From IMG/VR virus record IMGVR_UViG_2874945390_000005: a stretch of DNA of 23,639 nt. One strand, given 5' to 3'. The notes below the pieces were generated by a model. That model did no database searches and was not told where the DNA came from. It worked only from the letters and a program-made list of their open reading frames with translations. Below, in pieces: positions 14,398-15,240 of this stretch; position 1 is the stretch's first letter; each line of letters begins with the position of its first letter. Position numbers and translations under genes: made by a program. This stretch comes from a virus (lineage: Duplodnaviria; Heunggongvirae; Uroviricota; Caudoviricetes).

Positions 14398-14488
14398 AAG
14401 CCACCAAGCCCGCTGGGTTCTCTTTGACTGTTCACTGCTTTTCTTAGTGTTATCAGGGGGTTCCCTCACACCAAATCTAACACAGAGT

Positions 14489-14515
14489 AACCGGCCTCAG
14501 CGCCGGTTTTTCTTT
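14489..14515 (+). terminator. Orphan rho-independent terminator on the plus strand
   Basis: aaccggc-ctcag-cgccggtt followed by tttttcttt; no plus-strand ORF upstream. Confidence 0.45.
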
Positions 14516-14678
14516 GCGCATCCTCCATAACTCACCACCTGCATTATCCTCGCTTATATTTTTTACATAAATAAATTAATCTAAAAATCAATCACATAGA
14601 TTAAAATTAAATTATTAGCCTTACTATTAACTGCGATCAGTAGTGCATATTATATTTTACCCAAGTCAGAAACATCGC

Positions 14679-14693
14679 GCCCTGACACAGGGC
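14679..14693 (+). promoter_or_regulatory. boxB-like hairpin GCCCTGACACAGGGC (possible nut-type antitermination element)
   Basis: Same stem as lambda boxB (GCCCT/AGGGC) with a different 5-nt loop. Lies just downstream of an AT-rich block (14540-14660). No clear boxA and no N-like ORF found. Confidence 0.25.
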
Positions 14694-15045
14694 TACATAA
14701 ATCAGTCGTACGGCGCGACTTAACCCGCCGCAAAATGCTCTTTAACAATCTGGAGCTTTACAGCGTCAATGACCTGTTTAGACCCCTACACGTAAACGTG
14801 CTGTATCATCGGGTGCGATCCGGTCGATGAGAGAGTATCCCCGCGCGAGAGCGAGAACGGCGTGAGAACGGGCAACACTGGCAGGAAGTTGGCGCTGACC
14901 AATACAGGGAATGTTTTGGGGTGCAGGCGGCACCGCCAAAGCATTTCCGAGAAAGGACGATATTGACTGCGTGTGATGTCGGGGCTATATTTGGCGAACA
15001 CCTCATAAAACGGGTGCCGGGATTAGCACCCCGAAAGTTACTCGA

Positions 15046-15079
15046 GCGCATAACCGCGCTGAAGCGGTTTTTTTATGCG
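15046..15079 (+). terminator. Rho-independent terminator preceding the rha operon
   Basis: cgcataaccgc-gctgaa-gcggttttttt-atgcg: GC stem followed by a T7 run, closing about 350 nt of GC-rich sequence with no ORF. Confidence 0.5.
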
Positions 15080-15240
15080 TAATGCACAGCCACATTCAAA
15101 TTATGGTGAGGCGTGCGGGGCAGCCGCAAGGCTGGCCGGGTTCTCGAGTGACCGGTAGTGCTAACCCTGTGCGTCTCACCACCCATGAGATTAGCACCTC
15201 TGGTGGTGAGTTAATTAACTTATCACTTGAGGATGTCATT

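Follow-up and report, generated by a model that had tools for sequence, protein, structure and literature searches.

The interval at 14400-15240 of a 23,639-nt Caudoviricetes record (IMG/VR IMGVR_UViG_2874945390_000005, whose whole length is called the window here) is probably the control region of the early-left operon of a lambdoid prophage (rha/ant, kil, recT, exo), in which a nutL-type leader precedes a switch formed by two small RNAs (sRNAs), IsrK and a C4-type RNA. These two RNAs most likely keep an antirepressor-like gene, rha, silent. A first-pass annotation made from the sequence alone had described the interval as one structured non-coding leader; every feature it listed is where it was placed, and the region is indeed non-coding and structured, but it is a stack of separate modules and not a single unexplained leader. 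An apparently empty 850 bp of a prophage resembling Shiga toxin (Stx) phages is fully accounted for. The evidence is computational: identities and pairings were computed here, and the direction of regulation is borrowed from the literature on P1 and Gifsy-1.

The switch consists of known RNA families at an already annotated site, as isrK and C4 are annotated at this place, in Stx2 phage F039, by one public record (LC710660). A small RNA had been among the candidates of the first-pass annotation, and there are two, both above their Rfam gathering scores. IsrK matches RF01394 over its full length (1-77) with 61.6 bits against a gathering score of 50, and the start predicted for the near-consensus promoter immediately upstream, 14998, is the first base of this match. 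Segment a1 of IsrK (AUUAGCAC, 15022-15029) lies in the loop of hairpin 2, segment b1 (UUACUCGAG, 15038-15046) is single-stranded, and the RNA ends in a terminator composed of a stem at 15052-15069 and seven T residues (a T7 run). Since promoter start and first isrK base coincide, the strong terminator previously noted at 15046-15079 is not an orphan but IsrK's own, and its spacing from the promoter is as expected. A weak overlapping match to c4-a1b1 (RF03163) stays below threshold (17.5 bits against a gathering score of 46.7), and no LexA box was seen by eye at the isrK promoter. The C4-type RNA matches RF01695 with 78.6 bits against 45, again over the full model (1-87). Its 17-bp closing stem ends in the conserved CACCACCC, the one sign in the sequence of a possible maturation by RNase P from a longer precursor, and it exposes two recognition segments, b' in a loop (GUUCUCGAGUGA, 15140-15151) and a' in a single-stranded stretch (AGUGCUAA, 15157-15164). 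Across 15 distinct homologues, 99.8% of the cells at paired positions are paired and 13 of 27 pairs show changes on both sides; the covariation score is 0.468 compared to 0.220 in shuffles, in an alignment that was fitted to the model and leans toward its structure.

Both recognition segments have two complementary partners. Segment a' is complementary to a1 in the IsrK hairpin loop and to a2 (AUUAGCACC, 15190-15198) downstream of C4, while b' is complementary to b1 in IsrK and to b2 (UCACUUGAGGA, 15223-15233), which covers the Shine-Dalgarno (SD) sequence GAGGA (15229-15233) of rha, whose ATG is at 15241-15243. A covariance model of the C4-type RNA (R1) found 79 copies next to rha homologues with 16 distinct C4 sequences, and loci with enough flank provided 14 distinct a'/b' combinations, comprising 10 variants of a' and 10 of b'. 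Mean duplex energies for cognate and non-cognate partners, respectively, were -8.2 and -4.3 kcal/mol for a'-a1, -8.5 and -2.7 for a'-a2, -12.4 and -5.5 for b'-b1, and -13.2 and -6.3 for b'-b2. The cognate site was the best partner in 13 of the 14 types for a1, in all 14 for a2, in 13 for b1 and in 11 for b2. The three copies of each site therefore co-vary across the 14 types, and the a and b modules reassort independently, a natural reassortment that offers a ready test set for the switch model. One clear exception to the co-variation of a', a1 and a2 is locus L137 (IMGVR_UViG_2826316604_000007, 1358-1445), possibly a recent recombinant, which combines an a' of the UGUAGCAA type with the a1 of the window and an intermediate a2 (AUUAGCUACC). 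Two other loci differ in layout. After the C4 of L187 (1384-1450), the a2-b2 spacer is enlarged by tandem CACCAAT repeats and b2 with its ribosome binding site (RBS) is farther from C4; L207 (IMGVR_UViG_2806310672_000003) contains three tandem C4-type RNAs (505-592, 1359-1446 and 2208-2294), which differ in a'/b' specificity and are each accompanied by a1/b1 and a2/b2 sites that match.

Between a2 and b2 lies an anti-segment (GGUGGUGAG, 15202-15210). The two arms of the 9-bp inverted repeat previously noticed in the rha 5' untranslated region (CTCACCACC at 15175-15183 and GGTGGTGAG at 15202-15210) are the 3' strand of the C4 closing stem and this anti-segment; their pairing co-varies and is found in all 14 types, at -14 to -18 kcal/mol. 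The anti-segment alternatively pairs with b2 and the SD sequence (as palindrome I3, and in the minimum free energy [MFE] fold), and with two partners for one segment the resulting folds are mutually exclusive. The read-through RNA folds with z = -5.85, with a1-a' and b1-b' paired in cis. On the proposed mechanism, the isrK promoter would produce the 77-nt IsrK, which stops at its strong terminator, and read-through and pL transcripts would contain the C4-type RNA. C4 would pair through a'/b' with a2/b2 and, as b2 overlies the rha SD sequence, leave the antirepressor-like protein untranslated; the a1/b1 decoys of IsrK would bind C4 in cis or in trans and lift the block, as shown for Gifsy-1 IsrK. 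Pairing of the anti-segment with either the C4 stem or the SD region would give an on/off fold. The rha product itself is predicted to be antirepressor-like: once one T is removed the frame matches Phage_pRha (2e-26), and its C-terminal half matches anti-repressor PHROGs (phrog_1760, 1.4e-43).

Hfq binding by IsrK and trans-activation of downstream translation are known for Gifsy-1 only, where IsrK ends at its own terminator and mRNA that reads through it is translationally silent until IsrK, acting in trans, turns on translation of orf45-anrP; STnc1160, a processed RNA that is stable, is located downstream of IsrK (PMC4825925). The first orf45 AUG of Gifsy-1 is at +107 (PMC4825925), and ATG 15103 of the window, part of a conserved AUGG at the C4 5' end, is at +106 from the isrK start. 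Based on this correspondence, we read Gifsy-1 orf45/STnc1160 as a likely C4-type RNA, and Gifsy-1 IsrK resembles that half of a P1-type C4 immunity switch which carries a1/b1; this reading would join two systems that are usually treated apart. The correspondence could also be taken to mean that 15099-15240 is mainly a translated leader open reading frame (ORF) coupled to rha. In Gifsy-1, anrP activation fell when the orf45 AUGs were mutated or a stop was inserted (PMC4825925); by our mapping of the numbering, orf45 begins at the AUGG of C4; and the frame from ATG 15103 enters rha without a stop, so that translation may contribute in the window as well. We nonetheless consider a mainly translated function improbable, because 13 compensatory pairs keep the RNA structure yet alter the peptide, orf45 nucleotides are conserved while its amino acids vary, as fits an RNA (PMC12197685), and a stable processed RNA exists there. 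The two roles could coexist.

The leader upstream of the switch was previously known, as far as our searches show, only as a 1985-style GenBank annotation in phage phi80. A relation to lambdoid nutL regions, raised by the first-pass annotation, was borne out by alignment: 188 nt (14736-14923) are 94.1% identical to the phi80 region annotated as "nutL regulatory signal" and begin with an exact boxA. The phi80 annotation puts boxA and a "nutL core" hairpin (14789-14800 in the window) some 60 nt past pL and upstream of a gene called N, and JX871397 annotates the site that corresponds to ours as nutL boxA. The window sequence, TGCTCTTTAACAA, which matches the 13-nt E. coli rrn boxA, is the only exact copy in the window, where 0.73 chance matches are expected at up to 2 mismatches. 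It also matches in full the published boxA consensus GYTCTTTAANA, in which the C at position 4 is critical (bioRxiv 10.1101/091223).

BoxA is followed by a 137-nt domain for which RNAalifold predicted a multi-helix fold from 22 diverse copies. In this alignment 96.3% of the cells are paired, compensatory changes affect 14 of 26 pairs compared to 8.1 ± 1.6 in shuffles, and the covariation score is 0.403, compared to 0.191 in shuffles and at most 0.10 with slid partners. The IMG/VR copies are interrelated, so the shuffle controls overstate significance, and firmer evidence comes from the slid controls and the large number of independent pair types; alignments built by our own models also lean toward the modelled structures. 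By eye, and unscored, both strands of helix P0 change without loss of pairing in several sequence types, and the P5 hairpin (14841-14860) is swapped for unrelated hairpins in others. Many unpaired positions are invariant, including UUAGACCCC, GCGAUCC and GAACGGGCAACAC. A covariance model of the domain (R2), for which E-values are rough as for all our own models, gave a score of 174.5 bits for the window and one of 178 bits for phi80. The window copy is the sole one; all 97 loci likewise have exactly one, and no second, nutR-type copy was found in the window or in these loci. The scan of the interval against known RNA families thus succeeded for isrK and C4 and left the leader domain without a match, as no Rfam family matched with the cutoff relaxed to E ≤ 5.

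In every annotated case examined, the leader lies directly after the pL-type promoter of the repressor's strand. HK225, phages of Klebsiella and Edwardsiella, and e14-like prophages of E. coli also have the element, and a pattern scan of IMG/VR gave about 68 further distinct copies. A search of genome contigs for the pattern TTTAACAA-N55-85-GCGATCCGG gave at least 120 matches, and all those listed were due to chance and fell in unrelated phyla. A search of the accessible literature found neither an experimental paper on the function of phi80 nutL nor relevant work on N-less Stx phages; as far as searches show, the covarying structure of the leader, its wide range, the lack of a conserved N partner and its put-equivalent position are undescribed so far.

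Between the predicted transcription start and boxA (about 73 nt in the window compared to about 58 nt in phi80) the leader forms two hairpins. The first, GCCCTGACACAGGGC at 14679-14693, is conserved in all window-type leaders with a GACAC or UACAC loop and an invariant stem, so that the alignment speaks neither for nor against its pairing. It had been likened to the lambda boxB. Judged by its sequence and position, this hairpin is not a lambda-type boxB: it is located upstream of boxA (GCCCUGACACAGGGC lies 43 nt before it, not after), the first base of its loop is U in most relatives, and there is no Arg-rich N gene. The first hairpin after the window boxA is instead part of the larger covarying domain with variable loops. 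The second 5' hairpin has a counterpart in phi80-type leaders, which likewise have a GGCG...CGCC hairpin abutting boxA. The GC-rich, palindrome-rich stretch noted earlier is evident in this part, as the GC fraction is 0.55-0.62 at 14750-14950 and the RNA from 14663 to 14997 folds stably (MFE of -120.7 kcal/mol, z = -3.0, better than 100 of 100 shuffles).

Just upstream, the AT-rich block reported at 14540-14660 (GC of 0.22 at 14550-14649 compared to 0.46-0.62 farther downstream) does contain a predicted pL-like promoter, as was expected there. A scan predicted TTAACT-18-TATATT with 9 of 12 matches (-35 at 14627-14632, -10 at 14651-14656), with transcription starting at about 14663; the -35 at the corresponding F039 promoter is TTGACT. 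The block is common only to phages with a cI that is 98-100% identical to that of the window, and where cI is 69% identical, the shared sequence does not begin until about 14650. When the 140 nt 5' of boxA from 96 distinct relatives were lined up, the promoter/operator DNA formed dozens of types that were unrelated to one another and had different repeats, and all 96 variants converged on a common sequence right after the -10. Divergent operators followed by a common leader form the pattern of immunity-specific operators before a shared transcript and support a start near 14663. The cI of the window may control this promoter.

A transcript from the pL-type promoter would carry the two hairpins, boxA and the domain. 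We suggest that boxA recruits NusB/NusE, that the domain may help build a termination-resistant polymerase without a phage N protein, and that pL transcripts could thereby pass the IsrK terminator and any Rho-dependent sites. We put the chance that the leader renders pL transcripts termination resistant in this way, through boxA and Nus factors and without phage N, slightly below even; such an N-independent antiterminator would help explain early-left transcription in Stx phages that lack N. More tentatively, boxA and the domain (14736-14897) may constitute a third, uncharacterised early antitermination device of lambdoid phages, in which an rrn boxA loads the Nus factors, the domain replaces N, and the slot is exchanged with put (HK639) and presumably with nut plus N. 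If this holds, an N-substituting leader would span phi80, Shiga toxin phages including the O104:H4 type, and Klebsiella and Edwardsiella phages. The leader of HK639 (L334 34187-34385, minus strand) opens with the same approximately 48 nt as phi80-type leaders (CCATCGAAACGAAACATCGAYAGCTGAG...) and continues with an annotated putL-like RNA, which occupies the exact slot where phi80-type phages have boxA and the domain; the slot thus exchanges antitermination modules. The HK639 leader looks like a module exchange at a fixed junction within the leader.

A conventional nut site that needs an N-type protein, supplied in trans by another prophage or lost, and that is inert alone, would also explain the annotation of nutL upstream of a gene called N in phi80 and the short basic ORFs, similar to an Arg-rich N, that follow the element in some members. 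Hosts of the Shiga toxin-producing E. coli type usually carry several lambdoid prophages. We regard this alternative as unlikely, since the first downstream gene occurs in 54 different contexts among 129 leader loci and homologues of phi80 N are confined to 22 phage records, which include no Stx/Oslovirus phage and neither HK225 nor KO-TP1. Moreover, phi80 N has no N-terminal Arg-rich motif, and the 94-99% conservation of the element across very different phages is hard to square with a changing cognate protein. The absence of an N-like Arg-rich ORF, which the first-pass annotation had remarked on, also stands for the window: tblastn with phi80 N, HK225_041, an N-like ORF of L026 and lambda N gave a best E of 0.33 at unrelated places, and a scan for Arg-rich N termini found no such ORF.

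Somewhat less likely still, the domain might not be an antiterminator at all but an element for 5' untranslated region stability or processing, a ligand- or protein-sensing switch, or a trans-acting RNA. Its many invariant unpaired positions would suit a binding pocket and the first downstream gene is highly variable, but the boxA linkage and the post-promoter position are constant, the slot is equivalent to that of put, and terminators lie downstream in both the window and phi80. At a similarly low level we place direct binding of the nascent RNA to RNA polymerase, as in HK022 put, without Nus factors or phage proteins. The position after the identical 48-nt leader start of HK639, the single copy just past pL, the lack of a conserved protein partner and the compact covarying fold would all agree with a put-like action. 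A boxA, absent from put RNAs, always precedes the domain, however, and points to Nus factors; and no sequence or model similarity to put was detected, which leaves the earlier idea of an HK022-type RNA unsupported. With filters off, R2 found nothing at HK022 putL/putR (L014, L009) or at the HK639 putL-like RNA (L334 34187-34312), with noise elsewhere at E = 0.24-6.5, and blastn gave no HK022 match. A decayed N gene, suggested previously, would be in the place where N lies in lambda and phi80 but is scarcely credible and, as far as sequence comparison shows, refuted: only the nutL part is common to phi80, with homology stopping about 165 nt before N, none of the four N-type queries matched, small ORFs had no PHROG match, and covarying RNA elements explain the sequence.

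Several observations weigh against termination resistance through boxA and Nus factors, or against a working circuit in the window. The boxA position that is reported to be critical is occupied by T in phi80-type copies, which weakens a pure Nus-loading model for the leader family. The known cases of rrn-type antitermination mainly concern Rho-dependent terminators, which makes it uncertain that a boxA complex would read through the strong intrinsic IsrK terminator. In L026/L075, the first ORF about 230 nt after boxA starts with MNSKQKRRAWRHERRQNERE and is Arg-rich, reminiscent of lambda N, and HK225_041 and its relatives contain ...LPKKRQKPRKQAIKEAQ..., a small basic N-like ORF; some members of the family may thus still use an N-type protein. 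The 17-mers common to the cro-cI interval and the AT-rich block were not above shuffled controls, and no operators were identified. Finally, the copy in the window is probably non-functional, with rha frameshifted and recT cut by an insertion sequence (IS). A +1 frameshift in a T7 run (15319-15325) splits rha into overlapping ORFs (15082-15378 and 15281-15880), which makes it either a pseudogene or the product of a homopolymer sequencing error. The 212-aa product obtained with one T removed is matched at 100% identity by five IMG/VR loci (L135-L139), in each case by one uninterrupted tblastn match, which implies that the frameshift is absent there. The 1265-bp IS, with two ORFs and an rve integrase core, cuts recT at 17376 (copy 17376-18640) and is 100% identical to a copy at 8655-9919; the early-left operon is broken as a result. 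Other transposase genes are located at 2733-3518, 5178-6083 and 20380-21219, and an IS3-type frameshift pseudoknot (ALIL) at 6645-6761.

At the upstream edge of the interval, the plus-strand terminator noted earlier at 14489-14515 is present, with a stem at 14489-14508 followed by TTTTTCTTTG (T-run at 14509-14515). Homology to Oslovirus Stx phages begins at 14428, and in F039 (L001) a coding sequence of 126 aa ends with a TAA immediately 5' of the same hairpin; the window retains the final ~65 nt of such an F039-type cargo gene plus the terminator. By this homology, we take the terminator to be a leftover of the cI-cargo operon that lies outside any antitermination circuit. It may be called an orphan now that its gene is gone, but only because the gene it terminated was replaced, with hicAB in the slot. 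The proposal that both terminators form one pair under antitermination control does not hold, the first being this relic and the second ending IsrK. Terminator-like sites number 10 in 12200-15400, compared to 3.2 ± 2.0 in shuffles. The lack of a credible ORF within the interval was confirmed: the longest are 53 aa on the plus strand and 81 aa on the minus strand, and six candidate small ORFs (14360-15082, both strands), in which homology to relatives is interrupted, had no PHROG match at E ≤ 0.1.

The surrounding genes define the operon. A cro-like gene (minus strand, ATG 12512) is followed by a cI-type repressor gene (12618-13337, plus strand; HTH_3 and Peptidase_S24 domains) and, on the minus strand, by hicB and hicA. 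The hicAB pair (13744-14397) is transcribed toward cI from a perfect consensus sigma-70 promoter (14397-14369, 12 of 12 matches) and fills the post-cI cargo slot that holds a restriction-modification system in Oslovirus Stx phages. Downstream of rha come kil (15951-16163), an unknown gene and recT (16725-17378), and then the gene for a YqaJ-type exonuclease. The operon called rightward in the first-pass annotation does lie downstream, but this gene order, from the cI side through rha, kil, recT and exo, makes it functionally the lambda early-left (pL) operon, drawn left to right. The nearest relatives are Oslovirus-type Shiga toxin phages (F039, Lyz12581Vzw, TL-2011c and the O104:H4 type), 92-99% identical in pieces; among complete E. 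coli genomes, none carries the whole interval as one piece. The F039 order is cI, methylase, restriction enzyme, two hypothetical genes, about 510 nt, isrK, C4, Rha-like gene, kilR, gam, bet and exo.

Table 1. Predicted features of the control region, with coordinates in the window
Feature	Coordinates	Strand	Basis
Relic 3' end of hypothetical cargo gene and intrinsic terminator	14428-14515	+	Homology, terminator scan
AT-rich immunity-specific promoter/operator block	14516-14662	+	GC, promoter scan, comparison of relatives
5' leader with two hairpins (14679-14693; 14711-14730, CGGCG...CGCCG just 5' of boxA)	14663-14735	+	Alignment, MFE fold
boxA TGCTCTTTAACAA	14736-14748	+	Consensus match, phi80 annotation
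Structured domain of phi80-type nutL leader (137 nt)	14761-14897	+	Identity, RNAalifold, covariation
Domain helix P0	14761-14770 / 14888-14897	+	
Domain helix P1	14773-14778 / 14880-14885	+	
Domain helix P2	14784-14786 / 14870-14872	+	
Domain helix P3 (phi80 "nutL core")	14789-14792 / 14797-14800	+	
Domain helix P4	14801-14802 / 14834-14835, 14806-14812 / 14824-14830, 14814-14815 / 14821-14822	+	
Domain helix P5, GAGA loop	14841-14846 / 14851-14853 and 14858-14860	+	
isrK promoter (TTGACT, 17-nt spacer, TATATT)	14963-14991	+	Promoter scan, 10/12
IsrK sRNA (77 nt)	14998-15074	+	Rfam RF01394
C4-type antisense RNA	15099-15186	+	Rfam RF01695
C4 target/switch region	15187-15243	+	Duplex predictions, co-variation
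rha, antirepressor-like gene, regulated target	15241-15880	+	Phage_pRha, PHROG matches

A second, paralogous C4-type switch is present elsewhere in the window (1990-2270, minus strand). Its promoter is consensus-like (TTGACA-N18-TATATT, about 2256-2227) and its short RNA has its own terminator (CCGCCCCGTCAGTTATGCGG and a T-run). A match to Rfam sRNA-Xcc1 (2134-2051, 78.1 bits) is followed by a P22-antirepressor-like gene (ORF6N and P22_AR_C domains, ATG 1999). By eye, the loop CUAUCGC has two partners, GCGAUAGGA at the RBS and GCGAUAGCGG upstream, and UUUUGAG pairs with CUCAAAA on both sides. Given these loop pairings at the RBS and upstream, sRNA-Xcc1 behaves here like a C4 relative.

The modules of the interval can be compared individually to known systems. 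In lambda, a terminator follows rexB, and the first terminator of the window is in the equivalent position. Like lambda nutL, the leader of the window follows pL and has a boxA, but it lacks a boxB after boxA and lacks N, and its GCCCU...AGGGC hairpin lies upstream. Phi80 nutL (M11919, JX871397) is the closest known relative in sequence, with the same place for boxA, the "nutL core" hairpin CACGUAAACGUG and a location about 60-75 nt after the pL start. The boxA of the window is the exact consensus, whereas that of phi80 deviates by a T at position 4; the window has a different variant of the 5' leader before boxA; and it lacks phi80 N, with about 120 nt missing and isrK-C4-rha in place of N. 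The E. coli rrn leader (boxB-boxA-boxC; NusB/E/A/G, SuhB, S4) has a boxB hairpin and then boxA, and the window shares the boxA and a hairpin directly 5' of it, whereas there is no similarity beyond boxA and 1-2 nt and the 137-nt domain replaces boxC. As in HK022 and HK639, whose put RNAs act in cis, a structured RNA lies right after pL with no cognate phage protein; the window differs from put in adding a boxA and a larger multi-helix fold. Its leader is single and confined to the left operon, as in HK639 and unlike HK022.

As for the switch, Stx phages, which lack N, probably control an antirepressor-like gene by IsrK/C4, with a phi80-type leader directly after pL. In P1/P7, c4 RNA blocks the ant RBS (PMC12197685). 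The immI region of these phages (c4-icd-ant) and the window share, on one transcript, a1/b1, a C4 with a'/b', and a2/b2 over the RBS of the first gene of the antirepressor operon, a putative one in the window; the C4 closing stem ends in a CCACC-type 3' end in both; and short variable loops that co-vary with their targets set specificity between P1 and P7 as among the types of the window. Unlike in P1, the targeted RBS in the window is directly that of a Rha/antirepressor-like gene without icd, a1/b1 are on a separate sRNA with its own strong terminator (IsrK), and the switch resides in a lambdoid prophage that encodes a cI repressor. Gifsy-1 (Hershko-Shalev et al. 2016, PMC4825925) has the same order of promoter, IsrK with terminator, a structured stretch of about 90 nt and an antirepressor-like gene; there too, the middle of IsrK is complementary to the orf45/STnc1160 stretch and alternative folds sequester the RBS. 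In the published Gifsy-1 model, the middle stretch is a translated ORF and is not named a C4 RNA. The window further differs from Gifsy-1 in that its frame is fused to rha, no antQ lies upstream, and the module stands behind a pL promoter and a nutL-type leader.

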